From IMG/VR virus record IMGVR_UViG_3300008448_000102, positions 1 through 55,533 of that record: DNA of 55,533 bases; one strand, given 5' to 3'. Positions 361 to 47,678 of this stretch are shown here, piece after piece. A model generated the notes under the pieces. The model saw nothing but the letters and a program-made list of their open reading frames with translations. It ran no database searches and had not been told where the DNA came from. The first letter of the stretch is position 1, and the number at the start of each line of letters is the position of its first letter. The DNA comes from a virus (Duplodnaviria; Caudoviricetes). The translations under genes were made by a program, and so were the position numbers.

Positions 361-552
361 CTATGTCGTCAATGTCGATTCTAATTCTAACTATGTCGTT
401 TTTATGTCGATTCTTTTGACCTAACTTATTGATAATCAATCTCTATGTCGATTATGTCAATTTTAACTTTACTTTCTAATGGGAAAAAAATAATATATAT
501 AATAAAGAGAGAGAGAGAGATAGGGACATAGCCAAAATCGGCTTTACGACAT
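361..552. other. origin-like element A (ATGTC iterons, IHF-like site, AT-rich tract, inverted iterons)
   Basis: ATGTC at 363, 372, 393, 404, 445, 454; WATCAANNNNTTR match on the - strand at about 422-434; A-rich tract; inverted GACAT at 525 and 548; homologous to 47501-47678. Confidence 0.6.
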
Positions 553-597
553 GTGGTGGTTTAAGGCTTGGTTATTTGGTATTAGACAATTGACTGT

Positions 598-605
598 TAT
601 ATTTG
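598..605 (+). promoter_or_regulatory. -7 promoter box upstream of groEL
   Basis: TATATTTG followed by the A-rich leader TAATCAAACAAA-ATG. Confidence 0.65.
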
Positions 606-625
606 CACCACTCTAATCAAACAAA

Positions 626-2233
626 ATGAACACATCGGGTTATTCTCCAAAGGAGTTATACTTTTCACAGGACGCCGTTGGGCGCCTAATTGGTGGCATC
701 ACCAAGATGAGCAACGCCGTCAAGAGTACCTTGGGTCCTCACGGCAACACGGTACTAATCGAGTCCCCGCACCACACGCATGGCATCACGGTAACGAAGG
801 ACGGGGTGACGGTGGCCAAGGCCATTGAGTTGAAGGACCCGGTCGAGAACCTTGCGGTTCAGATGATGAAGGAGGCGGCGGACCGCACGGCGACGTTGGC
901 GGGCGACGGCACGACCACGGCGATTGTGTTAACCGAGGCGTTGGTACGCGAGGGCATGCGGAACATATCGGTGGACATGAACCGCACGGAGGTGCTGCGT
1001 CAGATGGTGGAGTTGAGCGGCAAGGTGGTGGAGAAGTTGAAGCGCAGGAGCAAGAAGGTGTCGGGCGGCATGCTGCACGACGTGGCGACAATCTCGTCCA
1101 ACAACGACAAGGCCATCGGTCAGATAATCTCGGAGGTATATAGGGAGGTTGGACGCAACGGCATTGTTACCGTCGAGCGCAGCCAAACGAGCGAGACCTA
1201 CTCGGAGACCACAAAGGGTCTAAAGGTTGACAGGGGGTACATGTCCCCGCTGTTCATCAACGACCAACGCAAGGACGAGTGTGTCTTCGAGGACACCATG
1301 GTGTTGGTGTGCGACATGGAGATAAGCAACATCCTTCAGATTGAGAATATCCTGAAGCCAATTGTAAGCGAGGGCAAGAAGTTGCTGATTATCTCGCCAT
1401 GCAGCGTGAACGTAATAAACACCTTGGCGGCTAACGTGATGAAGGGCAACATTAAGGTGTGTGCCATTCCGCCGCCCAACTTCGGATACAAGCAGCACGA
1501 GTTGATGCAGGACATCGCCGTGTCGCTTGGGGCCACGTACTTCAGCGAGAAGACGGGCGACGACCTGAGCCTCATCAACTACGGACACTTGGGCCACGCG
1601 GCCAAGGTGATTGTGGGGCGCGACAGCACGGTGATTATCAAGTCGGAGGTTAAGTCAAATCAGGAGACCATCGAGGAGCGCGTCGCTCAGTTGTGGGAGT
1701 CACACGCTTTGGCGAAACGCAAGGCCGACAAGGACTTCATCTTGGAGCGCATTGCTTCATTGACAGGCGGCATCGGCGTCATCTACGTTGGCGGAAATAC
1801 GGACCTCGAGCAGAAGGAACTGTACGACCGGGTTGACGATGCGGTATGCGCGGTGCGGTCGGCATTGGAGGAGGGCATCCTCCCCGGCGCGGGCAAGGCG
1901 CTGTACGAGGTCAGCGTACACTCGCTGATGTCAGGCAACCCGTCCACAGCCGAGCAGGTAGCGGCGGAGATACTTGACGCGGCTATCAAGGTTCCACTGA
2001 TTCAAATCCTTTCCAACGGCGGTTATGACTACCGCGACATTTACACCGACGCGGTCGGCGAGGGCGAGGGCTTCAACCTAAAGACGGGCAAGACGGGAGA
2101 CCTGATTAAGATGGGGGTGATTGACCCGCTGAAGGTCACACGGTCGGCGTTGCAGAACGCGGTGAGCGTGGCGACCACAATCCTAAGTACCAACGCAATT
2201 GTAACAATGGCCCGCTCCTATGAGTCAGCATGA
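626..2233 (+). CDS. groEL: phage chaperonin GroEL (Cpn60)
   Basis: TLGP-G, VTKDGVTVA, AGDGTTTA, ERIASLTGGIGVIYVGG and GVIDPLKVTRSALQNA motifs; no C-terminal GGM repeats. Confidence 0.97.
   Translation: MNTSGYSPKELYFSQDAVGRLIGGITKMSNAVKSTLGPHGNTVLIESPHHTHGITVTKDGVTVAKAIELKDPVENLAVQMMKEAADRTATLAGDGTTTAIVLTEALVREGMRNISVDMNRTEVLRQMVELSGKVVEKLKRRSKKVSGGMLHDVATISSNNDKAIGQIISEVYREVGRNGIVTVERSQTSETYSETTKGLKVDRGYMSPLFINDQRKDECVFEDTMVLVCDMEISNILQIENILKPIVSEGKKLLIISPCSVNVINTLAANVMKGNIKVCAIPPPNFGYKQHELMQDIAVSLGATYFSEKTGDDLSLINYGHLGHAAKVIVGRDSTVIIKSEVKSNQETIEERVAQLWESHALAKRKADKDFILERIASLTGGIGVIYVGGNTDLEQKELYDRVDDAVCAVRSALEEGILPGAGKALYEVSVHSLMSGNPSTAEQVAAEILDAAIKVPLIQILSNGGYDYRDIYTDAVGEGEGFNLKTGKTGDLIKMGVIDPLKVTRSALQNAVSVATTILSTNAIVTMARSYESA
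1281..1296. repeat. dispersed 16-bp palindrome copy 1 (GTGTCTTCGAGGACAC)
   Basis: Exact sequence, inside groEL. Confidence 0.9.
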
Positions 2234-2447: not shown

Positions 2448-2701
2448 AGGCAATAGGCAAATACATTGTAGTCCGTCAGTTGGAGGAGGAGGTGCGGACG
2501 GAGTCCGGCCTGATACTCAGCGGCGAGGACACCAATCAGTTCAGGTACCGCAGGGGTGTGGTAATATGCCCGGGCACCGACGTGAACTGCATCAGTGTCG
2601 GCGACGAGGTGTACTACGATAAGGCGCACAGTTTCACTATGCTAATAGGCGAGGAGCATCACACCATCATTCTTGAGCGGGACGTTGTTGTTGTCGCTTG
2701 A
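2444..2701 (+). CDS. groES: co-chaperonin GroES (Cpn10)
   Basis: Mobile loop TESGLIL, G.VI..G, VGDEVYY and ILERDV motifs; close to groEL. Confidence 0.92.
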   Translation: MKAIGKYIVVRQLEEEVRTESGLILSGEDTNQFRYRRGVVICPGTDVNCISVGDEVYYDKAHSFTMLIGEEHHTIILERDVVVVA

Positions 2702-3140
2702 GTCGCTCGGCTTCGGCAATCTCGTTCATCTCGTCGATTAGTTTCCGGTAGACCTTGTCGCTATAACGATAGGTGCGCTCGCCCAACTTCAGTCGGGTGA
2801 TGTAGTGCTGCTTGCGTGGTATGGCAGGGAACGGCACCGAGTGGCTAAGTTTGTCATAGATGAAGTCAACGACCTGAGCGGCCTTGAAGGAGATTTGGTA
2901 TAGGGTCCTTTGGTTCCCCGTCCTTGGCCTGAACACCGTTATCCACCCATCCCTAAGAAGCCGCTTAAACCGCTTGCTGTCCCAATGAAGGACGGACTCA
3001 AACTTTTCAAATCGCTCCCTACTGAAGTAGTTCTCATCGTAGAGGTACAGGAGGACGTCGAGGTCGGCCTCGCTTAGGTCCCACTTTCTTTTTGCATATT
3101 GGCGGACCACACGCCAATACTTTAGATAATTAGATTTCAT
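2667..3140 (-). CDS. putative winged-helix (MarR-like) DNA-binding protein
   Basis: LSEADLDVLLYLY...RLLRDGWI...LYQIS pattern; has its own -7 box on the - strand. Confidence 0.6.
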   Translation of the reverse strand: MKSNYLKYWRVVRQYAKRKWDLSEADLDVLLYLYDENYFSRERFEKFESVLHWDSKRFKRLLRDGWITVFRPRTGNQRTLYQISFKAAQVVDFIYDKLSHSVPFPAIPRKQHYITRLKLGERTYRYSDKVYRKLIDEMNEIAEAERLKRQQQRPAQE

Positions 3141-3144
3141 TTTA

Positions 3145-3162: not shown

Positions 3163-3169
3163 ACCTATC

Positions 3170-10350: not shown

Positions 10351-10635
10351 ATGAGGGATGTAAGGGAAGTGAAGTTGAGGATTATCGAGGCGGGACATCA
10401 GGCCGTAGAGCAACTCATAAAGGTTGCCAAGGAGGACATTATCAAGCACGATAACGAGGAGGAACTATCCGCTGACAGACTAAAGAACGCGGCGGCTACA
10501 AAAAAGTTAGCCATATTTGATGCCTTCGAGATTCTAACTAAGATTGAGATGGAGCGAGAAAATCTCGAGTCATCTAATGCCGATACAAAGCGAGTAGATA
10601 CACGACAAGGGTTTGCGGAAAGAAGGTCAAGATAA
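10351..10635 (+). CDS. putative terminase small subunit
   Basis: Immediately upstream of TerL; helical, with ADRLKNAAATKKLAIFDA. Confidence 0.65.
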   Translation: MRDVREVKLRIIEAGHQAVEQLIKVAKEDIIKHDNEEELSADRLKNAAATKKLAIFDAFEILTKIEMERENLESSNADTKRVDTRQGFAERRSR

Positions 10636-12862
10636 TGAACTATATGTTTCGATTAGGGGTTTCATCCCCACTGCTGTACTAAACAGGAAGAACAAGAGTA
10701 GGTCTTGGGAGTACGGGTATAATGCGGAACATGACATGGTCGTCATTTCAAAGACGGGCCAAGTTGGAGAGGTCGTAAACATATCCGGCCTAAACATAGC
10801 ACTGCCATTGGAACCAACAAAGTGTCCTCAAAGACACTCCAAACCCGAGGAGCAGTATTGGGAACGCAGTGAGTTACCCAAGGAATTGCTAAAGATTCAG
10901 TCCATCTTTCATTGGAATGAGATGCCGGGCGACTTTAAGAACGCTTGGGTGGACTACATAGAGCAGGAGTTCGATTACCGAGAGCAGGGCTATTGGTTTA
11001 TGAACAACGGGGTCCCAACTTATATTACGGGCTCCCACTACATGTACCTTCAGTGGTCAAGTATAGACGTAGGCTACCCCGACTACCGTGAGGCGAACAG
11101 GATTTTCTTTCTATTTTGGGAGGCATGCCGTGCAGACCCAAGGTGTTTTGGTATGATATACCTGAAGATTCGTCGTTCGGGCTTTTCATTCATGGCATCA
11201 TCCGAGTGCGTTAATATCGGAACGCTTGCAAAAGACTCGAGGGTCGGCATACTATCAAAGACGGGGGCCGACGCTAAGAAGATGTTCACCGACAAGGTGG
11301 TTCCAATTAACAGTAAGTTACCATTCTTCTTCCGCCCAATCATGGATGGGATGGATAAGCCTAAAACAGAGTTGGCGTTCAGGGTTCCCGCCTCTAAAAT
11401 CACCAAGAAGAACATGTACGAGGTGAGCGGGGATGACATCATGGGGTTGGACACCACCATAGATTGGAAGAACACAGAGGAGAACTCCTATGACGGAGAG
11501 AAACTATTGTTCTTGGCACACGACGAAAGCGGAAAGTGGGTTAGGCCAAACAACATTCTTAATAATTGGCGTGTAACCAAGACGTGTTTGCGCTTGGGAA
11601 GCAAGATTATAGGTAAGTGCATGATGGGGTCTACCTCAAATGCCCTCAGTAAGGGTGGCGATAACTTCAAGTCCCTGTATGAGGACTCGAATGTATCCTA
11701 TCGAAATGCCAACGGTCAGACAAAGAGTGGCATGTATGGCCTGTTCATACCTATGGAGTGGAACATGGAGGGCTTCATCGACCTATATGGCATGCCTGTG
11801 CTTCGTAAGCCTGAGAAGAGGGTACGCGGAGTGGACGGTGGATGGATAGAAAACGGTGCTATTGACTATTGGGATGCCGAGGTTGACTCGCTAAAGAACG
11901 ACTCGGACGCCCTGAATGAATACTACCGTCAGTTTCCGAGGACAACATCGCATGCTTTTAGGGATGAGAGCAAGCAGTCGCTGTTCAACCTAACCAAAAT
12001 CTACCAACAGATTGACTACAACGACTCCGTCATCAAGGAACACTACCTCACAAGGGGCTCATTCCATTGGAAGGACGGTATAAAGGACACTCAGGTCATT
12101 TGGATGCCCGACAAAAGGGGCAGGTTCCTCATATCTTGGTTCCCAAAACGGGAACTTCAGAACAGGGTCATTGAAAAGAACGGCATTAAGTACCCCGGCA
12201 ACGACCACCTTGGGTCTTTTGGGTGTGACTCCTACGATATATCGGCTGTTGTTGGTGGCAGGGGGTCAAATGGGTCACTGCATGGCATGACTAAGTACCA
12301 CATGGACGACGGCCCGGTCAATGAGTTCTTCTTGGAGTACATTGCCCGCCCTCAAACGGCTGAAATCTTCTTTGAAGAGGTGCTGATGGCCTGTGTTTTC
12401 TTCGGGATGCCTATCTTAGTGGAGAATAATAAGCCGAGGCTGTTATATCACTTCAAGAACAGGGGGTACAGGGGGTTCTGCATGAACCGACCTGACCGAG
12501 AGTTCACTAAATTGTCAAAAACTGAGCGTGAACTTGGAGGAATACCCAACTCTTCCGAGGAAGTTAAGCAAGCACACGCCTCAGCAATCGAATCCTATAT
12601 TGAGAAGTACATTGGGTACGACACGACGGGCACATACCGTGAGCCTGACGTGATTGGGACGATGCCTTTCACCCGAACATTGGAGGATTGGGCAAAGTTT
12701 GACATAAACGACAGGACAAAGTTCGATGCCTGTATAAGTTCAGGGTTGGCTGTTATGGCAAACCAAAAACATCTGTACCAACCCGAGAAAAAACAGACAA
12801 AAATTAGCATTAACTTTGCAAGATATATCAATGATGGAATATCAAGTAAACTGATTAGATGA
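10613..12862 (+). CDS. terL: terminase large subunit
   Basis: Walker A-like KIRRSGFS, Walker B LAHDE, coupling motif GST, nuclease GCDSYD and FDA; TTG start uncertain. Confidence 0.92.
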   Translation: MRKEGQDNELYVSIRGFIPTAVLNRKNKSRSWEYGYNAEHDMVVISKTGQVGEVVNISGLNIALPLEPTKCPQRHSKPEEQYWERSELPKELLKIQSIFHWNEMPGDFKNAWVDYIEQEFDYREQGYWFMNNGVPTYITGSHYMYLQWSSIDVGYPDYREANRIFFLFWEACRADPRCFGMIYLKIRRSGFSFMASSECVNIGTLAKDSRVGILSKTGADAKKMFTDKVVPINSKLPFFFRPIMDGMDKPKTELAFRVPASKITKKNMYEVSGDDIMGLDTTIDWKNTEENSYDGEKLLFLAHDESGKWVRPNNILNNWRVTKTCLRLGSKIIGKCMMGSTSNALSKGGDNFKSLYEDSNVSYRNANGQTKSGMYGLFIPMEWNMEGFIDLYGMPVLRKPEKRVRGVDGGWIENGAIDYWDAEVDSLKNDSDALNEYYRQFPRTTSHAFRDESKQSLFNLTKIYQQIDYNDSVIKEHYLTRGSFHWKDGIKDTQVIWMPDKRGRFLISWFPKRELQNRVIEKNGIKYPGNDHLGSFGCDSYDISAVVGGRGSNGSLHGMTKYHMDDGPVNEFFLEYIARPQTAEIFFEEVLMACVFFGMPILVENNKPRLLYHFKNRGYRGFCMNRPDREFTKLSKTERELGGIPNSSEEVKQAHASAIESYIEKYIGYDTTGTYREPDVIGTMPFTRTLEDWAKFDINDRTKFDACISSGLAVMANQKHLYQPEKKQTKISINFARYINDGISSKLIR
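10822..10837. repeat. 16-bp palindrome copy 2 (GTGTCCTCAAAGACAC)
   Basis: Variant copy inside terL. Confidence 0.8.
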
Positions 12863-34000: not shown

Positions 34001-37000
34001 CCTCAAGAAGTTACCCAAGAAGGTCAAGCCCAAGAAGGGGTAGTGTCTTCGAGGACACTCGAAGAGCAGGTGTCCGCCCTCGAGCAGATGATGACCGAGG
34101 AGGAGACCAATGACTTGATTGATGAGTTTGCATTGGCGGTGGACACCGTAGATGACGCACAGGCTGCTCTGTCCCGTGGCGACCTTGTCTATGTATTCGA
34201 TGAGACCACCGAGGCACCGACCTTGGTATCGGACGCCACCGTTCTTGCGGGGTATACACCCGACCGTATCGCCGTGGTTCCAAGGGAGAACTCCCCTATG
34301 GCACAGCAGCCGCAAGCGCAGCCACAGATGTCAGCCGTTGAGTTCATAATGGGTGGCATCGCCCCAACAGAGAATGTGGTGATTGGCTCCAACAAGGCCC
34401 AACTTGATTCGGTTAGGGCGCAGACAACTGACGCCACTAAGCGTCGTGTGTTGGATATGGTTGACAGCGGAGTGAAGGTACTCAAGGCGTTGTTCCCGAA
34501 TGTTGACATCGCCGTGCATACCACAGCCGAGTCTTACAATCAGGCTATGCGAAACCTTGGATATGGGACCGACTCCAAGGGGCGATTCTCCACAGTTTTG
34601 GATGCCGACGGAAAGGTTGCAGGTGGCCGTATAGATATTGACCTATCGAGTGCTGATGGTGTAACGGTAGCGCACGAGATTGCACACGCCGTGATGCTCA
34701 AGGCTTTCGGTGATAACCCTGCGCTATTCAAGACATTCAGGGGAAAGATTAGCAAGATACTTGCTGACTCTACTGTAAAGAAACTCAATGATTTCGCAGA
34801 CCAATACAACGAGAGCGAGTCGCATGAGGAGTTCTTGGTTCAACTTGCGGGGATGCTTACTGATAACGCTCAGGAGTTGGCACGTGTTGAGCCTACCACC
34901 ATTCAGAAGATTGCCGATGCCATCAACAGCATTGTGTCTACAATCACGGGAGGAAGGTTCGTTCCGTTCAAGGGCACGACCGACGTGAACCAACTCGTTG
35001 ACTTCTTGAATACAATCACGAGGTCTATCCGTGAGGGTGAGTTCTCTGATTTGATGAACCAAATTGAGGCTTACTCTACCGCCACACCAATCCCCGTTTC
35101 CGAGCCTGATAATTTCAACTCAAAGCAGTATAAGTCTAAGGCAAGCATTGGTAAGTATACAATACCAAAGGGGTCAGACCCTATACTAAAAACAGCAAAT
35201 TTACCTGTAAGGTCATTGTCTGACTTAGTAAAGCAGTACGGTGGTCGAGTTGCTATTATCACAAGTGATGCAACAGGTTATGGTGTTGATTCAGATGGAG
35301 CGCCAATCTTAGGTGGATTTGGATTTTGTGTTAATGCAAAGAATAACCAAGACAACATAGGATTTGCAAGTGTCAATGTTGGTACTGTAAGAACAACATA
35401 TACCCTTGCAGAAAAGGCTTATGGTAAGGGGAAGACGTTAGTCTTGGTAATGATACAGCCACCCCATACTACAATAAATAATTCTTATGGGGCCAAGTAT
35501 ATATTGAGAGGTCTTGTGGACTTAGCCAAAAAGTCTAAAAAAGATTTTGAGTCCGCAAAGGGTGGCATGGAAGACTTCATTAAAAAGTCAAAGGCTATTC
35601 AAAAAGAATTTAAGTCAGAGGATGGTAAGGCGAGAGCAAGTCAAAAAGAACTCATAAAGTTTATAGATAGCATAAACTCAAAAACAAACATTGACAGGGC
35701 GGTTCAGGACTTCTTGGCAATGACCACATTTACCATAAGAAAAGAATTGGGTCTTGGTATTCTGTTAGAAAGAGGAGATGTACGTATTTCTAAGGGTACA
35801 AACCCTGCTAAAGTAGCATTCAACGGGTTAGGATATAATATATTCAACTTCCTCAAGGAGTATGGAGACTCATCTATATTAGATGATAATATCATACTTG
35901 ATAATAAGGGTGGCCTTTTGGTCGGTGGATTTGAGTTAGATGTTTTGCCTAAAGAGCAAAGAGAAAAACTTATTCTTGATACTCAAAGCAAAGGGATAAA
36001 TCATCCTCTGTTTAATGCTAAACTCCCCGGAACAAATCACTTTGTATTAGATGGCTTGTATGATGTGCAGGAAAACTTTGGAAAGTATGCAAAGCCGGAC
36101 ACAATAATCTTATTAGAAAAAGAAATAGTAGATGCTTTAGTTAGAAAGTATTACCCAACCGATGAATACTATAACGCTGATGCCAAAAAAAGTTTTAATG
36201 CTCAAAGAAAGAAGGGTGTAGCGGAAAAGGATATACAGAGAGAGTATAAAGACTTAACGGCTGCTATCAAAAGTGAGTTTAAGTATAAATATCTTACAGG
36301 GATAAAGGGTGCATTAGCACCGAAAGAACCAAAACTCATAGCAAAAGTTTCCAAGGGGGAAGGATTTGTACCTAAAGAAGGTGCTGAAACTGAATTGGCT
36401 TCGGCTGCATTTACAGCAATCGGGAAATACGAAAAGGCTGACGCCAAGGATAAACCAAAACTAAAGTCCAAAGCGCAGGTAGCCGTTCATAAGGACACAG
36501 GCTTTGTGCCTGTTGGTTTTTGGGTCGAGCAACTCAAGGGAAAGACGGCATACCTTGATGAGGTAATTAAGCATGTATTAAAAGCACGTGAGGAACTCAA
36601 GGAGGGAAAGGTAAGGGAAAGAAAAGTAGTCAAGGCATATCTTATCACAATAGGCTCTGTACTTGCAAGAGGAGGTACTTACTCCGAATGGAAGAAGAAA
36701 ACAAATCAGGAGGTGAGCGATGTCTTCTTAGAGAAGGTGAATGGTAAGGACCACCTAAGACCTGAAGGGGTATCTGCCGCTTATCTTATCACTCCTGATG
36801 GAGAAAAATTAGTTGATGACATCATAAACGGAACAGCCACATTCGAGCAGATAAGGAAGATGTTTGAATATGTAGGCTTTGGTCTTGAAAACAAAAGGAC
36901 AAACTATGTTCTTGAAACCATGAAGAATGATGGCTTTAAGGCCATGACTGACTTATTCAACAAGAACAAGGGTTCTGACTTTAATGAACTATACAAGGGA

Positions 37001-40000
37001 GCAATAAAGAATTTTGCAGGAATAAGAGAAGGTAAGACAGGATTCTTCAATCAGTTTTTTGGTGTGACATCACGTGGTGTAATTGACGCCCGTGAACTTA
37101 ATGCTTGGGTTGCGGGTTCGATGGACCTCACTCCTGAGCAAAGGGCTAAGGTTGAGAAAGTTTCAAGAAGTAAGAAACTTGGAGAGCAATTACTTGGATA
37201 CATCGAGCAGGTTGGCATCGAGTTAGGATACCCGAAGGATTTGGCGGGATACATTGCACACCATGGGATATGGGATTCCATCGCCAAGTCTGTCACCACC
37301 CATCAGGGCGAGTATATGGTGGTCTCCAAGGCGCAGAAGGCAGCAGAGGGTGCAGAAAAGGAGAAGTACAAGGTCGTCATCGTATTCAAGAGCAAGTTCG
37401 GTGGGAGTAGGGCCAAGCCATACGAGTTCAATGACAAGAGACACTTCGATAATTGGTTCAAGAAGTATGGAGAAAAGTACGACATCAGGGAAATCTATGA
37501 GATGAACTCGAAGGCGCAACTATCAAAGTTGCGTGGTATGGAGCGCATCGTTGAACTCGGTCGTGCAAGTGGATTCTCGGACGAGGCCATCACCGTTGTT
37601 CTTCAAAAGAAGGGATACTCGCAGTCAGAAATAGACGAGGCGTTGAAGACCAAGAAGGCCGCATCAAAGGTTGTCGTCAATGAGACTTTCGTCGAAGGGT
37701 ACGACCGCATGATGGGCGAGGTTGATGGCATCATCGAGAAGGGCTTGAGGCGTGGCTCAACGCAGGAGCAGATACTCGACAATATCATCAACTACATCCA
37801 AGGCTCTAAGGCATACGAGAACGCCACCGATGTTCAGCGTGAGCAGTTGATTCGTGACGCACGTGCTGCGTTCGGCAAGAAGGAGAAGGCGGCACCGAAG
37901 GTTGAGCGCATCCTCGGTACACTCAAGGACGTGAAGAACGTCACCATGTCGGAGTACCAACTGCTCAAGAAGCAGATTAAGGACTACGCCAAGGGTGCGA
38001 AGGATGCTACCAAGGCATGGCGGTTGGCTTCAGAGTCGCTGACAAAAGACCTGCGGGAGTTGGTACGTGGCGGAAAGATAACGAGCAAGCAAGCCGTTGC
38101 CGTCCTGCGTAGGTTCTCGAAGGTCAACATGTTCGACCCGAACTCAATCGAGTCGTTTGTCAACTACATGACCAAGGTGTTCGAGAACGCCGACTATGCG
38201 GAGCGCATATCAGGTCTGAGAAAGAAACTGAAGTTGGCTAAGGATAGTGCGAGTCGTAAGATTGGTATTGCAGAGGGTCTTTACCCGATGCTGAACCGCA
38301 TGCTTCGCATTGACCCGACCCTCATACCTGACTCGGTGCTTGACACATACGCCGAGATTGTTGAGATGCTCGGCAAGCGTGATGCTGTGCTGAAGTTGCA
38401 GGACATCCAAGATGTGACAGAGAAGACCAAGACCGTACTCGATGCTGTGGATAGTGAACTATCTACATTGGAGACGCTGTCTGAAATCTTCGAGCAGTAT
38501 GCAGACAAGGTCGTTGACGAGAATGGTGCTATTCAGTTTGCTGACACGCTCGATGCGATGGTAAGCGACGGCACCATCACAAACGACGAGGCAAAGATTC
38601 TCAGGAAGTACAAGAATATAGTGATGCCACGCGCTGCAAAACCTGAGAAGACAGAGGAGCAGTTGAAAGAGGAGCGAGATGAAATGCTGAAGGCGTTGTC
38701 TTCGGTTGACATTGACGCTGAATCGCTGCCGACTCAGGACGAGCGTGACTTGGCTCGTGAGTTACAGAAACTCAAGGATAGCGATGCGGTTGAGGGACTG
38801 TCGAACAGTGAACTCGAGAAGTTGCTGCGCGTCATTGACAACATAAACAACGGGTATCTTCCTCACTACGCTCAGTTAATGAAGGAGAAACTCAATGCCA
38901 TCAATAACGAGAAGGCACTCGAGTCGTCGGTCAAGAAAGCGAAGCCGTTGCCTGTAACTAAACTGTATGCAAGACTGAAGAGCCTGTTCTACAAGAACTC
39001 CAAGGCCCTTGACCTTATGGTTCAGCGAAATCCGCTGTTCTATATCGACCAAGTCTTCGGTGACTTTAAGACCAAGGATATTTTCAACTCTATCTTAAAG
39101 CCAATCTCTGATGCAATGGGCGTCTTCAACTTATCCATTCAGCGGGTAGAGGACAAACTCAATGGCGCACTCGACGAGGTGGCGAAGTCGCATAAGAACG
39201 ACCCGAAGAAAACAAAGATGTCGTCATACAAGATGATGACGTACATGCTGCAACTTGAGTTCATGTCGAACCCTGACAGCGTTGGTGTCAATCCTGCATC
39301 TGAGTTCTTGAAGGCAACCATAAAGCATATCCGTGCTGAGAAGTCGCACCTTAGTGACATTGATGCCGACATGCTTCAGGAGATTCTTGATACGTACTCT
39401 GATTCGGATGGCAACATCGACTCAGAGAAACTATTTAAGTCATTCAATCCCGCAGAGAAGAAGGCACTCGATACCATTAAGGGTATCAACGTAGACATGC
39501 GTGATAAGGCTGTATTTACAGCACACATTATCCGTGGCGACAAACTCACTCCGCTGAACAACTACGTACACCACAACGTGCTGCATGAGTTTAGGCCCGA
39601 GGAAAACATATCGGGTGTTACATCGGCGGAGGAGTTCAATAATATGATGCAGCCGTCCACCCGTGGCAAGTCTCTCATATCAAGAACAAAGGGCGTGAAG
39701 CCATTAGATTTTAACGTGTTCTCAGCCACTCAGCGTGGAGCCAACTATGTGCTGATGGACTACTACCTGACCGAGCCTATCAGGACGGCAAGGAAGACCA
39801 TCAATGCCACCGAGAAGGCACTCGAAGGTGAGACGGGAATGAACAAGAATGATAGGGACACCTTCAATGCCATCCGTAATTCGTTCGAGGCTGCTGTAAG
39901 GAACACGCTAATGACGAGGTTCCATAACAATACGTTTGCTGACGAGGTTGTGAACTTTGTAACCAAGAACGGATACCGTGCCGTTCTCGCAAGTACAACA

Positions 40001-41494
40001 AGGTGGGTTGCTGAATTGACATCGAACATGGGCTTCATCATGTTTGCCGACCGTGCGTCGTGGCTCAATGGTATACAGAACTACATGGATGTGGTATCGT
40101 CACCGAACTCAATCGACATCCTTACCAACCTGAAGAGTTCTCAGTCTGCAAGGCTTTACCCATCTGACACATTATCGGGTCGAATGATTGACTCAAGCAT
40201 GATGAGCCAAGCAAGTGGCACACGTGGGGGTAGAACAAGGGGAGACATTGCAAATACAATGCAGCGCATCTACAACAACTCGCTGAAGAAGTATCAGAAC
40301 TTTGTTGAGACCACAGCCGATTCGCTTATCTCTACGCCTGATAAGATTATGATGAGGCCATATTGGTTTGGCTCGTTCGCTAAGGAGTTTAAGAGCATCA
40401 CGGGCAAGGAACCAAACTTTGACCTGATTGCAGAGAACAACGAGGCGTACATGACCGAGAACAAGGAGGCGCTCGAGCAAGCGAAGAAGACTGCCGACGA
40501 TAAGAGCGTACTTGCGGGTGCATCCGACAACCCATTTATGGGCATCCTCAAGGGTCAGATAACGCCCGACATGAACTCATTACTGAAGGCGTTCAATGTG
40601 TTCAACAACTACATGACACGCTTCCTTATCTACGAATACTCTACCGCAAGGACGGGCATCATGGCAGCCATTGGAAATGGAAGCATCACACGTAAGCAGG
40701 GTGCCGCACTTCTCGGTGGTGTAGCCACAAGGATGGTGGTATACTCACTGCTCACATCCACACTTAGCAACGCATTGGTCGGACTCTTTGTTGATGACGA
40801 GGACGAGGACGACGAGAAGTCCCTGTTGCAGAAGATGGGTCAGGCTATGGCGTCGGGTATGAGTGCCCTGCTGCTTGGCCGTGACTTTGGTAACGCCACA
40901 AGGGCGGTCATCAACTATGGTGTTGAGCGCATGAACGAGGAGTTCCTTACCGGACTGAGGAGTGGTGACTACGACCCATATAAGGACGCCATTGCATACT
41001 CAGCCTTTGCAAGCCAAAGCGACAATGCCACGCTTCAAGACTATGCCATCAATATGATGGGGCCGCTAACTCCAATAGCGAAGACCACGGCGTTGATTGT
41101 TAAGAAGGCTTCGGGTGAACCAAAGAAAGAGGCAGCAGCACGTGGACGTGAGCAGAAGGAGATTGAGGTTCGTATCCCGTTGGAGATTCTTGGTAACGTA
41201 GGCCTTGTTCCCCTGTACAAGGATGTACGCAAGGTAGTGATGGCCGACATTTACAAGGGCATGAAGAAGGAGTTGGGGAAGGGCGACTTCAAAAAACAAG
41301 AGCAGGAGGACATGAGCCGTGAGGACATGAAAAGATACTTCCCTCAAATGTATGAGCAGATGTATGGGAAGCGTTCTCCGAACTATAAAATGGAGCAGTC
41401 CATGAAAAAGTTTGACAAGAAGATGAACGACTTAGACAGGAGGATGAAGGACGAGATGTACAACTACACTCCAAAGAAAAAGGATAATGACTAA
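31013..41494 (+). CDS. giant polyvalent/ejection protein (3493 aa) with a zincin HExxH domain and an HhH glycosylase-like module
   Basis: Uninterrupted ORF; HEIAH at 34673-34687; hydrophobic Gly/Ala segments; modular composition. Confidence 0.8.
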   Translation: MNDKIQKLYDLYTQSGLLNSTDLNTFASATPEQQQKLYDLGVSKGLFKSVDFSTFSTAFQVKKKDEAVPPAEETIPSPQPQQEQPAAMASPSGVSSSASPSGLQEFKGFSPEQLSGMKASAQEAPEVARMRAEMQKPERERQEQEREKKEAASFKAATASEADFASSLGKVNKELIDFDEDYIAPQLNYMFGTYGFKFNQALPGQEAIEVVAPNGKKKTIAVDTFSDKKDLESSNELKAFINENKPKIVSMANQYSQYERKFNNEQEIANSFKSINEEANTLAKEQKDVAARYAAVQKEMEYLSTPAAKAAPDYQQRLAKFNTDSQEINNSVKQLSAKESDVILKQKKLDKSVGLYTEMKSEQGGIFGAMYNAAVGSIGASSAGRVGLFTDLVTAIVPLEYQMGENAYRKSFIEKAISNGISVPQTLSKENFDAWVDRLDEDVRDNIDSKILDENRKGIKQEMLPVVRTGLTQMIGDQGTTKEYMEKKQEEYIAGGLIGLGGSAPAIALSMGAAPVGMAEFFFLGMDATMQQMNAPEFKDISETEKYAVAVPVGVVNAVLEEFGLRNVIGKSGVVNNLVTRALSKSTKTTTAKSFKELVENEVESDIARGVLTFAAAGLAEAETGAAQAAAEIGIQEIYNTVKEKKLFQTPNSMGELIDDVLKSGVQEAVGGFVMGMPSAISTAYKDNNYNGVTDEHIAFFQAFANDVNVRNAFDIKLKNDINIGKITAEQAQEKLDNYTAASGLLNTLPDGLDNAQKRKALGLIQERKGLENQIQNKDEALTKKQRTRIAEINTELEGIMEMTPAPAAPTISEGERLMPITPEAPAAEAKPLTRTEITNPDLKAVIDERVMFYENMLKRDEEFYNEQMAEWNKKGLLQKMFGTLAGAKPSYKEAVRHAKGKLEQLENNPEAYFQETLDFYMEDMPEVPAEQMYMYSDKIGEETEDGARYRTNLVNLLKTFKEENDAIQKQAAGQVPVQPRAGGSQEVAQGEPQAGPQEVTQEGQAQEGVVSSRTLEEQVSALEQMMTEEETNDLIDEFALAVDTVDDAQAALSRGDLVYVFDETTEAPTLVSDATVLAGYTPDRIAVVPRENSPMAQQPQAQPQMSAVEFIMGGIAPTENVVIGSNKAQLDSVRAQTTDATKRRVLDMVDSGVKVLKALFPNVDIAVHTTAESYNQAMRNLGYGTDSKGRFSTVLDADGKVAGGRIDIDLSSADGVTVAHEIAHAVMLKAFGDNPALFKTFRGKISKILADSTVKKLNDFADQYNESESHEEFLVQLAGMLTDNAQELARVEPTTIQKIADAINSIVSTITGGRFVPFKGTTDVNQLVDFLNTITRSIREGEFSDLMNQIEAYSTATPIPVSEPDNFNSKQYKSKASIGKYTIPKGSDPILKTANLPVRSLSDLVKQYGGRVAIITSDATGYGVDSDGAPILGGFGFCVNAKNNQDNIGFASVNVGTVRTTYTLAEKAYGKGKTLVLVMIQPPHTTINNSYGAKYILRGLVDLAKKSKKDFESAKGGMEDFIKKSKAIQKEFKSEDGKARASQKELIKFIDSINSKTNIDRAVQDFLAMTTFTIRKELGLGILLERGDVRISKGTNPAKVAFNGLGYNIFNFLKEYGDSSILDDNIILDNKGGLLVGGFELDVLPKEQREKLILDTQSKGINHPLFNAKLPGTNHFVLDGLYDVQENFGKYAKPDTIILLEKEIVDALVRKYYPTDEYYNADAKKSFNAQRKKGVAEKDIQREYKDLTAAIKSEFKYKYLTGIKGALAPKEPKLIAKVSKGEGFVPKEGAETELASAAFTAIGKYEKADAKDKPKLKSKAQVAVHKDTGFVPVGFWVEQLKGKTAYLDEVIKHVLKAREELKEGKVRERKVVKAYLITIGSVLARGGTYSEWKKKTNQEVSDVFLEKVNGKDHLRPEGVSAAYLITPDGEKLVDDIINGTATFEQIRKMFEYVGFGLENKRTNYVLETMKNDGFKAMTDLFNKNKGSDFNELYKGAIKNFAGIREGKTGFFNQFFGVTSRGVIDARELNAWVAGSMDLTPEQRAKVEKVSRSKKLGEQLLGYIEQVGIELGYPKDLAGYIAHHGIWDSIAKSVTTHQGEYMVVSKAQKAAEGAEKEKYKVVIVFKSKFGGSRAKPYEFNDKRHFDNWFKKYGEKYDIREIYEMNSKAQLSKLRGMERIVELGRASGFSDEAITVVLQKKGYSQSEIDEALKTKKAASKVVVNETFVEGYDRMMGEVDGIIEKGLRRGSTQEQILDNIINYIQGSKAYENATDVQREQLIRDARAAFGKKEKAAPKVERILGTLKDVKNVTMSEYQLLKKQIKDYAKGAKDATKAWRLASESLTKDLRELVRGGKITSKQAVAVLRRFSKVNMFDPNSIESFVNYMTKVFENADYAERISGLRKKLKLAKDSASRKIGIAEGLYPMLNRMLRIDPTLIPDSVLDTYAEIVEMLGKRDAVLKLQDIQDVTEKTKTVLDAVDSELSTLETLSEIFEQYADKVVDENGAIQFADTLDAMVSDGTITNDEAKILRKYKNIVMPRAAKPEKTEEQLKEERDEMLKALSSVDIDAESLPTQDERDLARELQKLKDSDAVEGLSNSELEKLLRVIDNINNGYLPHYAQLMKEKLNAINNEKALESSVKKAKPLPVTKLYARLKSLFYKNSKALDLMVQRNPLFYIDQVFGDFKTKDIFNSILKPISDAMGVFNLSIQRVEDKLNGALDEVAKSHKNDPKKTKMSSYKMMTYMLQLEFMSNPDSVGVNPASEFLKATIKHIRAEKSHLSDIDADMLQEILDTYSDSDGNIDSEKLFKSFNPAEKKALDTIKGINVDMRDKAVFTAHIIRGDKLTPLNNYVHHNVLHEFRPEENISGVTSAEEFNNMMQPSTRGKSLISRTKGVKPLDFNVFSATQRGANYVLMDYYLTEPIRTARKTINATEKALEGETGMNKNDRDTFNAIRNSFEAAVRNTLMTRFHNNTFADEVVNFVTKNGYRAVLASTTRWVAELTSNMGFIMFADRASWLNGIQNYMDVVSSPNSIDILTNLKSSQSARLYPSDTLSGRMIDSSMMSQASGTRGGRTRGDIANTMQRIYNNSLKKYQNFVETTADSLISTPDKIMMRPYWFGSFAKEFKSITGKEPNFDLIAENNEAYMTENKEALEQAKKTADDKSVLAGASDNPFMGILKGQITPDMNSLLKAFNVFNNYMTRFLIYEYSTARTGIMAAIGNGSITRKQGAALLGGVATRMVVYSLLTSTLSNALVGLFVDDEDEDDEKSLLQKMGQAMASGMSALLLGRDFGNATRAVINYGVERMNEEFLTGLRSGDYDPYKDAIAYSAFASQSDNATLQDYAINMMGPLTPIAKTTALIVKKASGEPKKEAAARGREQKEIEVRIPLEILGNVGLVPLYKDVRKVVMADIYKGMKKELGKGDFKKQEQEDMSREDMKRYFPQMYEQMYGKRSPNYKMEQSMKKFDKKMNDLDRRMKDEMYNYTPKKKDND
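33909..34043 (+). CDS. nested 44-aa basic protein in the +1 frame of the giant gene
   Basis: MPFKSKQQVKYLYSQEPEVAKRWRKENPKQDLKKLPKKVKPKKG, preceded by AAGGAGG; resembles the MPFKS..Q small phage proteins. Confidence 0.6.
   Translation: MPFKSKQQVKYLYSQEPEVAKRWRKENPKQDLKKLPKKVKPKKG
34043..34058. repeat. 16-bp palindrome copy 4
   Basis: Exact GTGTCTTCGAGGACAC inside the giant gene, overlapping the stop of the nested ORF. Confidence 0.9.
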
Positions 41495-41904
41495 GTGTAC
41501 CTGACGTACCTGATGTTGTCCTGCTTATCATAGTAGGCCATCATCTCGTCGTCGTTTACCGCCCCCTCTCTGTTTGGACGACCACCAAGCCTGACGCTCC
41601 CGTATATTTTCCTGATGTCGGCGTAAAATATGCCATCCTCACAGGCCCAAATTACGATTGGCTTCATCCGCTTGTCCATGAGTTTGACTAACTTTCTTAA
41701 AGCGAGCGGCAAAGGGAAGGCGTCCCTCATCGGGCGTATCCTTCCCTTTACCTCTGCGTAACCGATGACATTCCCGTCGTGGTCGAGAACCTTGTAATCG
41801 ACGTCGTTCTCGCTGAGTTTTACATATCTCAGGTTGAAGGTCTTTGAAAATAGTTCTATTGCCTTTAACTCACGGGCGAGGTCTGTCTCGGTTTCAAATC
41901 TCAT
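41491..41904 (-). CDS. PD-(D/E)xK nuclease-like protein
   Basis: VDY...YAEVKGR motif. Confidence 0.7.
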   Translation of the reverse strand: MRFETETDLARELKAIELFSKTFNLRYVKLSENDVDYKVLDHDGNVIGYAEVKGRIRPMRDAFPLPLALRKLVKLMDKRMKPIVIWACEDGIFYADIRKIYGSVRLGGRPNREGAVNDDEMMAYYDKQDNIRYVRYT

Positions 41905-42440
41905 TACTTGTTCAGGATTGCGTTCACTCGGCGGTACATCTCCTCCTCGTCGCCAACCCTTACTCGTTCGCTTAGGAGGTCTAATATGCGCTCAAACCGC
42001 TTATACTTTTTGAGCGACATGCGAAGATACTCCTTCTCTGATACAAGATTATCAACCATAACCGTCAGGTTTTCAACACGCTTGACCATCTGTGACTGCT
42101 TGGTCATTGGTACGATTGGCTCCCTGCCCCTAACAAATGCGTCCTTGCACTCCATGTACTTATTGAAAAGCGGTACGGATTGCTCGAGCCAATCGGACAC
42201 ATTCCTGTTGTAGTGTATGATTGTCGAGTGGTTCTTGTTTAGGTACTTACCGATAGTGGTTATACTATGGCCTCGGTCGGATAGTATCTTCGAGAACACC
42301 ATCCTCGCCTCAACAATGGATTGATACCTGCGCTTGTTCATTAGGTCTGTGTTGAACACCTTGTCAACAATCCTCCTTAGTTCCTCCCTTTCCTGTCTTG
42401 CTTTCTCTATCTCCTCGATAGACCTCTGATTTAATTCCAT
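41904..42440 (-). CDS. DnaA C-terminal (domain IV) HTH-like protein
   Basis: RRYQSIVEARMV...SITTIGKYLNKNHSTIIH; start at 42440 after the leader CTCAAATCAC. Confidence 0.7.
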   Translation of the reverse strand: MELNQRSIEEIEKARQEREELRRIVDKVFNTDLMNKRRYQSIVEARMVFSKILSDRGHSITTIGKYLNKNHSTIIHYNRNVSDWLEQSVPLFNKYMECKDAFVRGREPIVPMTKQSQMVKRVENLTVMVDNLVSEKEYLRMSLKKYKRFERILDLLSERVRVGDEEEMYRRVNAILNK

Positions 42441-42648
42441 GTGATTTGAGTTCATTGATTCTGTATTGTTGAAGTTTTGATAGTTTTCCGTCGGGTCTCT
42501 TGACCTCAATAAATAATACGTCCGAGTGGGGCGGTATAGCGATAAGGTCGGGTATCCCGTTGCGGTTTGTCTTGACCAACTTTATCACATAGTATCCCTG
42601 AGCCTCGAGTTCCTTTATCTTCTTGGCTTGTATCTGCTGCTCTGTCAT
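42364..42648 (-). CDS. VRR-NUC domain nuclease
   Basis: E..IQ.K, GIPDL, FIEVKRP.GKLS.LQ motifs. Confidence 0.9.
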   Translation of the reverse strand: MTEQQIQAKKIKELEAQGYYVIKLVKTNRNGIPDLIAIPPHSDVLFIEVKRPDGKLSKLQQYRINELKSHGIKSEVYRGDRESKTGKGGTKEDC

Positions 42649-44745: not shown

Positions 44746-45074
44746 CTTGCTATCCTCCTTCCGCAGTCACCGCATCTCATCTTGCGTGAATACTCTGTAA
44801 TCACGGGGTAGTAGCATTCGCACTCCTCCTCCTTGGGTGTGCCGTCCTCATTGTAGTTCTCGTCGAATATCTGCTTGAGTTCGGCGCAATGCTCGAACAT
44901 CTCGCAATCTTGGAAGTACATAATCATCATCTCCAAGGCGTTCGGGCTGAGTTCGTTTGGGTCATGGGCAAAGTATCCAATGCCCGCATTCAGCACGTCG
45001 TCGAATGTGGCCTTGCCCGTGAGGACATTGAATGAGTTAATCATTCCTATGTGAATCGTTTGGTGGCTGTCCAT
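44742..45074 (-). CDS. hypothetical protein with C-terminal Cys pairs
   Basis: Coupled ORF; TAGATTTG box at 45100-45107 (-). Confidence 0.7.
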   Translation of the reverse strand: MDSHQTIHIGMINSFNVLTGKATFDDVLNAGIGYFAHDPNELSPNALEMMIMYFQDCEMFEHCAELKQIFDENYNEDGTPKEEECECYYPVITEYSRKMRCGDCGRRIAR

Positions 45075-47517
45075 CTGTGTCGTATGTTAGTGTGGTTTGC
45101 AAATCTACCTCAGGTTTCTTTTTGATTATCATCCACCTTCCGCTCATGTCCCTGCCCTCCTCGGGAATTGTTCCCTCCTTGAACATGGCGTATGAGACAA
45201 GCCATCGGTAGAACTTAGTTCGGCTTATGGTCATCCTCGACTTTGGCCCGTAGTCGGGGTACTCGTTTATGAAGTCGTAGTACAAGTCGTTCTTGTTAAT
45301 GCGAACGCCCGTCTGTATTGGCGAAGTTCTGCCCTCGCTCCTGTCCAACAGGCCGCACCACTCGATGAAGTCGTGGCAGGTCTCGGCACTAAGTTGGCGA
45401 ACCTTGAGGTTAACGAACTTGCTCTTGACCAACCCCGTGTTGAGGTATCCCTGAAGGTTTCCGACCATGTAGTTGTCGAACTCGCACCAATCGTCATCCG
45501 ACCAATCTCCGAACATCAACTTGCCGAAGTCATCCAATGGGGTGAACGCCTTTGAATAATACTGATGCAGTTCGAGTTCCCACTTGCGTCGGGCGAACGA
45601 GTTGCCCGAGCCCTTGATGGCGTAGTTGGTTGTGATGGCAATCTTGGGAGACTTACTGAATGGAATCTTGATGGCGTCCTTGTTCTTCTTCTCGAGTGTC
45701 AGACCCTCGGTGACCACCGAGAACAGACGCTCGAAGTCGAAGTATTTCTTGACGTCATCGAAGCACAAGATTTGGGTGTCCGCTGACACCAACTGATATG
45801 CGAACGACCGCTCGAAGGTGAAGGACTTTCCGTCGATGACCACGAGTTTCTTCATGTTCGACAGGGCGTTCATAAACAAACCCTTGCCCGTGCCTCCCTC
45901 GGGGTTGTCGCTGATAACCTCGTCGTTGAGGATGATGGCCGGACAGAAGGAGAGGTTCTTGTAGCCGTGCAAAAGGAAACCGATTGTACTCTCCATGGAC
46001 TTGACCCTGCTGTCGTCGTCGAAGCAAATGTTTCGGATGAACCTGCGGTAGTCGCACCTGTCGGTAACGCGGCACTTGTGGAAGTTGCGGTCGATGACGT
46101 GGTCTTTCCAAACGTAGCCCCCCAAGTCGAGGTAGTCGATTGGTATTACATCATTCTTGGTAATCTTCACGGCACAGTTCCTGTAATAAAGGTAGGCCGA
46201 CTCCTTGGTATCCTCGATAAAGTAGATGTCGATTGTTGACAGCATGGACAGGAACTCCTCCTTAAAAAATCGGGTGTTGTCAGCGAAGTAATTATACACG
46301 GACATGTCATCCAATTCCAACAGGTGGTTCAGCACGAAGTCCTTAATCTCCTTCTCGCTTGCGTGGTCGATGAGGTTGTTGGTCACCTTAACGAATACGT
46401 AGTTCTTGCTACCCTCGGGGCAATACTTGTAGAACCCCGAATCCTCAAGGAACTGCTTGAACAGGATGTGTTCTATTCTGATTGCACCCTTCTCGTTCTT
46501 CGTCCAAAATGTCTGCTTGCTATTCTCGTCCTCAATGCGTGTCATCACGGCGTCGATGGTGTCCTCGTCCAACATCGACTCCTGAAGTTGGAGGCGTATC
46601 TCTTTCTTGGATACGCCCCGTAGCAACTTGGATTTGATTTGGCTGATGCGCTCCTCGTCCTCGTAATACTTTGTTCCGAAGTTCGCCGTGTTGGAGTAGG
46701 CCGAGTTGATGGTGGTGGTTATCTCCCGTGCGGTGAAGTCCTCGGTGATGTATTGGTTCAGCACGTAGGATGCGAGCCCTCGGTTTACACCGAAGTCGTT
46801 GAACGCCATCGCAAGGATGTAGCAGTTCTGATTGCGCTGCCCCTCCGTCATGGGGTACTTTTTTGTCCACCACTTTACGAGTATGTCCACAATCTTATTC
46901 TCGTCAGTTATAGGGATGGTTGGCCTGTCCCTGACCTTTGACACCTCCGTGTACTCAGGCTCCGCTATAACGTCCCAAATGGAGGAATTTGGGTTAATGT
47001 AAAGCAGGGGGTCATAGGACTCGTAGCAGACCCTGCTTAGGTTCTTGCTTGTCTTGTCGAAGTACGGGCTGTTGAAGTGCTTCTCGAGGCTGTTGAAGTA
47101 GTTGACGTGGTTTGATGGGTCGGGCGGTATGCGAACCAATACCTTCAGGCCGTTGCCTGATGGTGAGATGAACACGCTGTACACGTACTTGCTCTTGGAC
47201 AGTGTCTCCTTCTCCTGAAGTAGTTCCTTTTGGTTTACGTACCCGTCGAAGTCGAGGCAGATGATGCCCGAGTGTTCGACGATGGAGTCGTCAGACCGCT
47301 TGTTGAACTTGCCGCTGAAGCAGATGGCGGGCAGTTGCTTCTTCAGTTCGTTGCGCTCCTGCTTTCGCTTCTCTAATCGTATCTTCTTGACCAAGTCCTT
47401 GGTTGCGCCGTCCTTGATGCGCCCAAGTATCAAATTGAGGTCACGATAGAATGGGGTGTCGGTGTCCTTGATGGTCTTGAATATGGTCACCAAACTACTA
47501 TATGTCGCTGATGTCAT
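45037..47517 (-). CDS. primase-helicase (VirE-N/BT4734-like primase, PriCT, P-loop helicase)
   Basis: K..LPA..FSG.F, CLDFD, FISPSG.GLK, R.C..SYDP; G.RN (PriCT); Walker A GGTGKG; CFDD. Confidence 0.88.
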   Translation of the reverse strand: MTSATYSSLVTIFKTIKDTDTPFYRDLNLILGRIKDGATKDLVKKIRLEKRKQERNELKKQLPAICFSGKFNKRSDDSIVEHSGIICLDFDGYVNQKELLQEKETLSKSKYVYSVFISPSGNGLKVLVRIPPDPSNHVNYFNSLEKHFNSPYFDKTSKNLSRVCYESYDPLLYINPNSSIWDVIAEPEYTEVSKVRDRPTIPITDENKIVDILVKWWTKKYPMTEGQRNQNCYILAMAFNDFGVNRGLASYVLNQYITEDFTAREITTTINSAYSNTANFGTKYYEDEERISQIKSKLLRGVSKKEIRLQLQESMLDEDTIDAVMTRIEDENSKQTFWTKNEKGAIRIEHILFKQFLEDSGFYKYCPEGSKNYVFVKVTNNLIDHASEKEIKDFVLNHLLELDDMSVYNYFADNTRFFKEEFLSMLSTIDIYFIEDTKESAYLYYRNCAVKITKNDVIPIDYLDLGGYVWKDHVIDRNFHKCRVTDRCDYRRFIRNICFDDDSRVKSMESTIGFLLHGYKNLSFCPAIILNDEVISDNPEGGTGKGLFMNALSNMKKLVVIDGKSFTFERSFAYQLVSADTQILCFDDVKKYFDFERLFSVVTEGLTLEKKNKDAIKIPFSKSPKIAITTNYAIKGSGNSFARRKWELELHQYYSKAFTPLDDFGKLMFGDWSDDDWCEFDNYMVGNLQGYLNTGLVKSKFVNLKVRQLSAETCHDFIEWCGLLDRSEGRTSPIQTGVRINKNDLYYDFINEYPDYGPKSRMTISRTKFYRWLVSYAMFKEGTIPEEGRDMSGRWMIIKKKPEVDLQTTLTYDTDGQPPNDSHRND

Positions 47518-47678
47518 TCGTATGTCGATTTAATGTTGATTTAATTGAGTTAACTGATTGATTAGTAATACTTATGTCGATTATGTCAATTATTCTTTCT
47601 AAATATAAATAAAAAAAAATAATAATAAAGAGAGTATATATAGAGAAGTAGGGGGTTCTGAATTGACTTTTCTGACAT
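47501..47678. other. origin-like element B, overlapping the primase-helicase start
   Basis: ATGTY at 47502, 47511, 47522, 47533, 47574, 47583; IHF-like site; AT tract; inverted GACAT at 47674; 19-nt identity with 444-462. Confidence 0.65.

Follow-up and report, generated by a model that had tools for sequence, protein, structure and literature searches.

In phage P4, the origin (ori) and a separate cis-acting site, crr, carry the same repeat word for the alpha primase-helicase, which binds the origin through a C-terminal winged helix. The lambda origin and origins of the pSC101 type combine phased direct repeats, a site for integration host factor (IHF) or a similar protein, and an AT-rich unwinding tract, and binding of the initiator at its own gene can be autoregulatory. 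We analyzed two elements with features of such origins, designated A (361-552) and B (47501-47678), in a virus record of 55,533 bases from IMG/VR (IMGVR_UViG_3300008448_000102, referred to below as the window). A precedes a groEL-type gene and B covers the start of a gene encoding a primase-helicase. A related arrangement has been described for the Staphylococcus aureus pathogenicity islands (SaPIs). According to a preprint, iterons oppositely disposed around an AT-rich region are read there by the C-terminal winged helix of the self-loading superfamily 3 (SF3) helicases Rep and PriRep5 (bioRxiv 10.64898/2026.10.17.759575).

No replication origin has yet been mapped for the large group of uncultured freshwater phages to which the window belongs. 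To our knowledge, the same applies to all phages that use a primase of the BT4734 type, and iteron origins in such phages were not found among the best 10 matches of full-text literature searches. In a review, this primase is presented as the only replication gene universal to crAss-like phages (PMC10136315). We propose, with a probability of about 0.6, that A and B are paralogs and serve the self-loading primase-helicase of the phage as origin-type binding modules.

Two modules of the same layout precede groEL and the primase-helicase gene

Element A directly follows an intrinsic-terminator-like hairpin (339..358, plus strand; 8-pair stem and T-rich tail) that ends a small plus-strand gene (78-317). 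It comprises six direct ATGTC units on the plus strand (at 363, 372, 393, 404, 445, and 454; 363..461), a match to the IHF consensus on the minus strand between units 4 and 5 (TATCAATAAGTTA, 422..434), an AT-rich, purine-skewed tract made of an A run, (TA)n, (GA)n, and a terminal TAGGG (462..524), and two inverted units, GACAT on the minus strand (525-529 and 548-552; 525..552). Downstream from the module, and outside the part shared with B, lies a promoter-like site (576..605, plus strand; sigma-70-like scan match at 576-603), followed by groEL. The sequence TATATTTG at 598-605 fits TAnnTTTG, the -7 promoter motif of the Bacteroidota. In element B, the start codon of the primase-helicase gene (47515-47517, minus strand) is overlapped by the first two of six direct ATGTY units on the plus strand (at 47502, 47511, 47522, 47533, 47574, and 47583; 47502..47590). 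The IHF-consensus match AATCAATCAGTTA (47551..47563, minus strand) again separates units 4 and 5, and an AT-rich, purine-skewed tract ending in TAGGG (47592..47655) precedes the inverted units on the minus strand (47665..47678), a degenerate GACTT (47665-47669) and a GACAT (47674-47678). The module is bounded by the terminator hairpin of the upstream minus-strand gene 47739-48068 (47690..47714, minus strand; GTGGGGG-CGAA-CCCCCAC followed by a T run on that strand). The hairpin is kept in relatives; a terminator scan made no call for it.

The correspondence extends to spacing, as an earlier note made from the sequence alone had claimed. Within-pair distances of 9, 11, and 9 nucleotides (nt) and a distance of 41 nt between units 4 and 5 are identical in A and B. 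The last pair of direct units lies inside an identical 19-mer (444-462 and 47573-47591), which has no other match in the record at two mismatches or fewer, and AATAAAGAGAG is present in the A-rich tract of both elements (501-511 and 47624-47634). The inverted units follow the last direct unit by 94 nt in A and 91 nt in B. In each element, oppositely oriented short repeats flank an AT-rich region. A and B are 79% identical along 71 aligned nt and 71% identical along the 52 nt that follow. The positions of A, between terminator and groEL promoter-like site, and of B, over the start codon, were likewise as previously noted. Relative to the genome, A and B are co-oriented, yet groEL is read rightward and the primase-helicase gene leftward. 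In A, the repeats precede the groEL promoter, but in B they fall within the leader of the primase-helicase gene.

The occurrence of this paired element is far beyond chance. Among 300 first-order Markov simulations of the window, four contained one cluster of at least five ATGTY units per 100 nt and none contained two, compared to two clusters of six units in the window. The AT-rich tracts, which are candidate unwinding regions, are also extreme in composition: that of B (12% GC) is the 60-nt stretch of lowest GC content of the entire record, and that of A (17% GC) is the third lowest. The tract motif TATATAGAGARNTAGGG was found in the window only in A, in B, and, with three mismatches, at one site inside groEL, indicating that it is not a recurring phage promoter. 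Scanning of the window against Rfam at gathering thresholds detected no family; thus, the elements are not explained by any known RNA. Separately, scans for sigma-70-type promoters returned weak matches (9-10 of 12 positions) no better than those of shuffled sequences. The tract of A contains a (TA)n run and a (GA)8-type microsatellite at 493-520, and tract length and composition vary widely among relatives.

Both modules are conserved in close relatives

Relatives of the primase-helicase and of GroEL were present in 485 and 437 IMG/VR stretches, respectively. The best 80 of each were used for profile work, and a DNA profile built from B copies was used to locate both elements. In 75 of the 80 loci, a copy of B was detected where the primase-helicase gene starts; in the five misses, either no more than 53 nt precede the gene or the gene is truncated at the contig end. 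The same profile located a copy of A before groEL in 74 of the 80 loci. Five of the six misses had less than 360 nt of flanking sequence, and unit pairs were visible by eye in the sixth (L091). Upstream flank of 9.5 kb or more was available for 39 loci, 12 of which contained a second copy on the same strand at a distance of 7.7-9.6 kb. In the remaining 27, the second copy should lie farther out than the flank reaches, as it would in MW202828.1, a circular GenBank relative whose two copies are 11 kb apart. Two whole contigs (G003 and G004) had exactly two strong profile matches each and no third. The earlier note had held that its proposal would fail if relatives carried a single element. On the contrary, both elements have kept their place, and their orientation relative to each other, throughout the family. 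The genes between the copies and on either side of them are collinear in relatives, and A lies anywhere from roughly 60 to 700 nt ahead of groEL.

The consensus of 68 distinct copies of A and 68 distinct copies of B retained the same blocks, namely the unit pairs, TAACTnATTGATwAT, the pair beside the AT-rich tract, the A run, ATATATAGA, TAGGG, and ttGACATt...GACAT. The IHF-like site was identified with the consensus WATCARNNNNTTR. A match occupied the same position in 54 of the 68 copies of A and 52 of the 68 copies of B, compared to 123 of 2720 shuffled copies, and an IHF or HU protein of the host may bind there. The distance between the units flanking this site fell into classes of approximately 30-31, 40-42, 50-53, and 59-62 nt, indicating that insertions and deletions come in whole helical turns. 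Such spacing would be needed by a wrapped protein-DNA assembly, and no such need would apply to coding sequence or to RNA.

In some relatives (L026, L110, and L135), an inverted copy of the repeat half of A lies beyond the AT-rich tract, resulting in a symmetric layout (L135:1-510; L026:389-618, which is G004:C1:48596-48825; L110:848-1099). In L135, the inverted repeat is roughly 110 nt long and located at the end of the contig, and the core is reversed relative to groEL. The inverted duplicate could be a symmetric variant of an origin, an invertible segment, or a fold-back artefact of assembly.

The repeat word changes jointly in both modules of distant relatives

A single-sequence query with a 47%-identical representative of the primase-helicase (P0004) identified no relative in IMG/VR. 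The wider search was therefore performed with an alignment as the query; it yielded 771 related IMG/VR stretches and loci encoding primase-helicases 37-83% identical to that of the window. Fifty-eight loci at or below 70% identity (37-70%) were inspected by eye. Twenty-five displayed the same layout built from other words, and three displayed it in part. The other words included ATGACGAT, CGTGACAAC, ATGTGTAGT, GTGTTGCG, TGTACA/TGAACA, TGACAAC, ATGTTAAT, and ATGTTGAG. The inverted units beyond the AT-rich tract were the reverse complement of each lineage's own word. Three whole contigs (G006, G007, and G008) encode primase-helicases 53-57% identical to that of the window. In each of these, the lineage's own word was clustered at exactly two places, 8.2-10.2 kb apart, one before the primase-helicase gene and the other after a terminator and before groEL. 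The two copies of each genome shared a near-identical 20-40-mer beside the AT-rich tract, comparable to the 19-mer of the window.

The copies of A and B also resemble each other more within than between genomes. For 26 genomes of the close family, the mean local alignment score was 58.5 for A and B of the same genome and 48.9 across genomes, and none of 5000 permutations reached the former value. Addition of the three distant genomes led to scores of 60.9 and 44.8, respectively, again with none of 5000 permutations as high. The joint change of word and the similarity of A and B within genomes indicate that both copies would be read by a single, lineage-specific DNA-binding protein.

The primase-helicase has a predicted C-terminal winged helix

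The primase-helicase (45037..47517, minus strand; 826 amino acids) consists of a BT4734-like N-terminal primase domain, a DUF5906/D5-type SF3 helicase, and a C-terminal winged helix (approximately residues 695-805, encoded by 45088-45435). The Pfam families detected were BT4734-like_N and DUF5906. An AlphaFold2 model based on an alignment of 70 sequences had a mean predicted local distance difference test (pLDDT) score of 89.8. Foldseek searches with this model retrieved the African swine fever virus PrimPol, the SaPI5 primase-helicase (7OLA), and poxvirus D5/E5 at E values of 1e-10 to 4e-13; the match to 7OLA had an E value of 1.8e-12 and a TM score of 0.59 normalized to the target. The last 116 ordered residues were modelled as a winged helix (pLDDT 84.7), the best structural matches of which were winged-helix DNA-binding proteins, with RFX at Z scores of 5.6-5.8. 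The origin-binding domain of P4 (1KA8) gave a Z score of 5.0 and an rmsd of 3.3 over 71 residues, tied with many other winged helices. Fusion of an SF3 helicase to a primase and a C-terminal winged-helix domain is thus found at the level of the fold.

The C-terminal domain is the fastest-changing part of the protein. In comparisons with five whole contigs, its identity was 65-67% for genomes with the same repeat word and 36-37% for genomes with other words, whereas identity of the helicase core stayed at 70-87% across the same genomes.

Proposed mechanism and its significance

If the primase-helicase is the protein that reads A and B, its C-terminal winged-helix domains would contact repeat units of 8-9 nt positioned on one face of the helix, and a bend introduced between units 4 and 5 by an IHF- or HU-type protein would wrap the array. 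Direct and inverted units flanking the AT-rich, purine-skewed tract would place helicase rings around it, and the tract would melt. Priming would then be carried out by the N-terminal primase domain and extension by a host polymerase. A host enzyme is invoked because the phage has no polymerase gene, DNA polymerase families being absent from 60 open reading frames (ORFs) scanned with Pfam and 56 scanned with PHROGs.

The two copies may divide the labour. B, which covers the start of the primase-helicase gene, is the likelier origin. It is also a probable autoregulatory site of the primase-helicase gene: since the repeats sit in the leader of this gene, binding should affect its expression, and occupancy of B at the gene start would probably throttle synthesis of the protein. 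A, at the head of the groEL and structural block and 8-11 kb from B, could be either a second origin or a cis-acting partner bridged to B by the same protein, by analogy with crr and ori of P4. The earlier note had proposed a dual or bipartite origin. The origin-type reading is strengthened by the joint change of the repeat word, by spacings that shift in increments of approximately 10 nt, and by the fold that the primase-helicase is predicted to have; that replication starts at the modules and that both copies are needed is what we infer.

A bolder extension, which we regard as speculative and rather improbable, is that the primase-helicase links A to B and thereby forms a loop of the early block of 8-11 kb, a single assembly both firing replication and switching expression from the early genes to the two blocks headed by the modules. 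If so, replication licensing and the switch to middle and late transcription would be one physical event, which would turn on the leftward replication genes from B and the rightward chaperonin and virion genes from A. Exchanges of repeat words would then act as an incompatibility code among co-infecting relatives.

Irrespective of this extension, the twin modules provide precise candidate sites of approximately 190 nt each. The lineage-specific words and the matching changes in a domain of 110 amino acids constitute a natural data set on how self-loading helicases read origins. The modules also account for the frequent assembly breaks at both spots and for genomes called linear that are otherwise complete.

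Several observations weigh against the proposal that A and B are origin-type modules for the primase-helicase. The strict IHF consensus is absent from 14 of the 68 copies of A and 16 of the 68 copies of B, and the Pfam scan found no gene for IHF or HU in the window. Z scores of 5-6 for winged-helix matches indicate only a common fold, not kinship. Foldseek searches with the C-terminal domain returned nothing below an E value of 0.2, and a profile of 70 homologues matched no relative among PDB sequences. By eye, no element was seen in 30 of the 58 more distant loci, where the primase-helicase gene is directly adjoined by another gene. Within the close family, the B copy of the same genome is often not the best match of A, ranking as low as 24 of 26, so that co-variation at this scale is statistical only. 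GC and AT skew track the gene strand and are uninformative for placing an origin. A terminator precedes the primase-helicase gene, so that the promoter of this gene must lie inside B, and on present sequence data a regulatory role cannot be separated from a role as origin. Finally, the repeats could be read by another protein, either the 157-residue regulator-like protein encoded at 2667-3140, which is present in all five whole contigs compared, or one of two small proteins with a DnaA domain IV helix-turn-helix (HTH).

Alternative roles of the modules

These last points are also the starting point of an explanation that we consider unlikely, in which A and B are arrays of operators or activator sites through which a phage regulator times or silences the replication block (at B) and the chaperonin and structural block (at A), replication starting elsewhere. 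Each element is indeed located just past a terminator and just ahead of the first gene of a long block, and the inverted units of A are approximately 25-50 nt before the groEL promoter-like site. The reverse complement of the last unit pair, TGACATAAT, is an extended -10-like word on the minus strand of both copies, but this word is not retained in lineages using other words (by eye). Promoter-linked operators would be expected to keep a fixed position and orientation relative to a promoter and to recur at the regulated operons. Instead, the copies are co-oriented even though the genes they head diverge, they lie upstream from one promoter and inside the other gene's leader, the spacing of A to groEL is variable, and each genome has only two copies, with none at other operons. 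Nor would an operator need an AT-rich tract, inverted units, or the symmetric variants of A. As for the candidate regulators, the 157-residue protein weakly matches a PHROG of transcriptional regulators (E value of 1.2e-4), but is only 39-42% identical even between genomes with the same word. The early 99-residue DnaA-type HTH protein (50436-50735) is absent or weak in the three genomes with other words (G006-G008), and the 201-residue DnaA-type protein is absent from four of the five genomes compared. On this evidence, the alternative binders appear to fit less well than the C-terminal domain of the primase-helicase. The first four letters of the repeat unit TTATGTCGA are also found in the DnaA box.

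Packaging offers an explanation of a different kind. A and B would be terminase sites bounding a long direct terminal repeat, the early block of 8-11 kb, that has collapsed in the assemblies. Repeats together with an IHF site are found in cosB of lambda, and small early-type genes, such as those of the block from B to A, are held by the long terminal repeats of T5 and SPO1. Contig ends also cluster near the elements: 8 of 44 contigs with a cut upstream flank stop no more than 250 nt from the start of the primase-helicase gene, and in 23 of 80 the end is located upstream from groEL at a distance of at most 1.2 kb. However, ends and closures do not fall consistently at the element. The ends inside B are scattered over profile positions 83-131, in the low-complexity (TA)n/(GA)n tract. 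One contig (G002) closes as a circle through a 127-nt overlap inside B, indicating that reads span B. Two others (G005 and G007) close at unrelated places, groEL and, from gene order, the structural block, and MW202828.1 is circular. The scattered ends and these closures make the contig ends look like assembly breaks in low-complexity DNA. None of the 160 contigs examined exceeds about 66 kb, so that none has the block twice. In addition, the large terminase gene is separated from A by 10 kb and from B by 18 kb. We therefore judge a packaging role very improbable. Even less credit can be given to recombination or partition sites read by a site-specific protein (for resolution, inversion, or as a parS-like centromere). 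P1 parS and attP arms likewise have repeat arrays on either side of an IHF site, but members of the integrase, resolvase, invertase, ParA, and ParB families were not detected among the 60 ORFs scanned, and the collinearity of relatives extends between and around the copies.

Breaks in the (TA)n/(GA)n tract of the module were frequent in the group (contig ends in L029, L030, L033, L038, and L078; also G001 and G002).

Genome context

The window is classed as linear and 92% complete. Its rightward genes (78-41494) encode GroEL (626..2233, plus strand; Cpn60_TCP1, E value of 3.6e-57), which starts a plus-strand block of 41 kb, GroES, lysis proteins, the large terminase (TerL, 10613-12862), the portal, virion proteins, a crAss-type muzzle-domain protein (27103-27903), and a giant protein of 3,493 residues. 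The leftward genes extend from 55360 down to 41491. They open with small early-type genes, including those of a Sak annealing protein and an exonuclease, followed by the primase-helicase, an SNF2 helicase, a DUF3310 protein, and a DnaA domain IV HTH protein.

The only close GenBank record, MW202828.1 (circular, 60,850 bases), originates from a freshwater spring and is also the only close record in the phage collection, in which no cultured phage carried the module. Among cultured phages, the Flavobacterium elemoviruses are the nearest to the window, with which they have in common only the N-terminal third of the primase-helicase (42.6% identity), and their intergenic stretch before the replication genes lacks such a module. 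The sequence was partly present in 20 of the 22 runs listed, and the 18 with a recorded organism were lake or freshwater metagenomes. The hosts of relatives and the words before groEL, which we read as promoter words of the TAnnTTTG type, suggest that the host is probably a member of the Bacteroidota.

Some features of the window were noted in passing. The gene at 2667-3140 (minus strand) is the lone leftward gene within the rightward block, located just past groES, and its product is annotated as "repressor protein" in MW202828.1. The two small proteins with a DnaA C-terminal HTH domain (41904-42509 and 50436-50735, both minus strand) are patchy among relatives. The ORF of 3,493 codons (31013-41494, plus strand), which adjoins the gene of the crAss-type muzzle-domain protein, had no Pfam family above threshold and is comparable in size to the virion RNA polymerases of N4-like phages. 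A 16-nt palindrome, GTGTCYTCGAGGACAC, occurs at 10 places with two mismatches or fewer (1281, 10822, 17887, 34043, 42284, 43553, 48111, 51980, 53105, and 54885), compared to 0.07 expected. Three of these sites (48111, 51980, and 53105) are in short spacers between leftward early genes, and that at 54885 is in the overlap of ORFs 54652-54960 and 54902-55360. The copy in groEL encodes a conserved peptide, and a similar palindrome follows a stop codon in one relative (G001, L174). The sites could be hairpin promoters, terminators, or operators of the early block.

Comparison with known systems

On the reading proposed, the modules would be iteron origins of a self-loading primase-helicase. The closest counterparts are the origins of SaPIs and other phage-inducible chromosomal islands, as described in the preprint cited above. 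In both cases, short repeats are opposed around an AT-rich region that adjoins the gene of the initiator or, in the window, of the candidate initiator, and the repeat words are specific to lineages. The initiator is a self-loading SF3 helicase, which in the window is fused to a primase, as in PriRep5, and has a predicted C-terminal winged helix. In contrast, the phage module is located before the gene and over its start codon, whereas the SaPI origin is downstream from the gene. The phage has two copies per genome, its module has an IHF-consensus site that is conserved and spacings that differ by increments of approximately 10 nt, and its protein has no similarity to any solved chain at the sequence level. 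The carrier is a tailed phage of 55-66 kb with probable Bacteroidota hosts rather than a satellite island.

P4 shares with the window two separated cis-acting sites built from the same word, here 8-11 kb apart, and the C-terminal domain has the P4 origin-binding domain among its tied top structural matches. The phage differs in that each copy is complete, with direct units, bend site, AT-rich tract, and inverted units, in that they head two gene blocks 8-11 kb apart, and in that the primase domain is of the BT4734-like type. The lambda and pSC101-type origins likewise have phased direct repeats, an IHF-type site, and an adjacent AT-rich tract, but their initiators only recruit the helicase of the host, whereas the candidate initiator of the phage is itself both helicase and primase.

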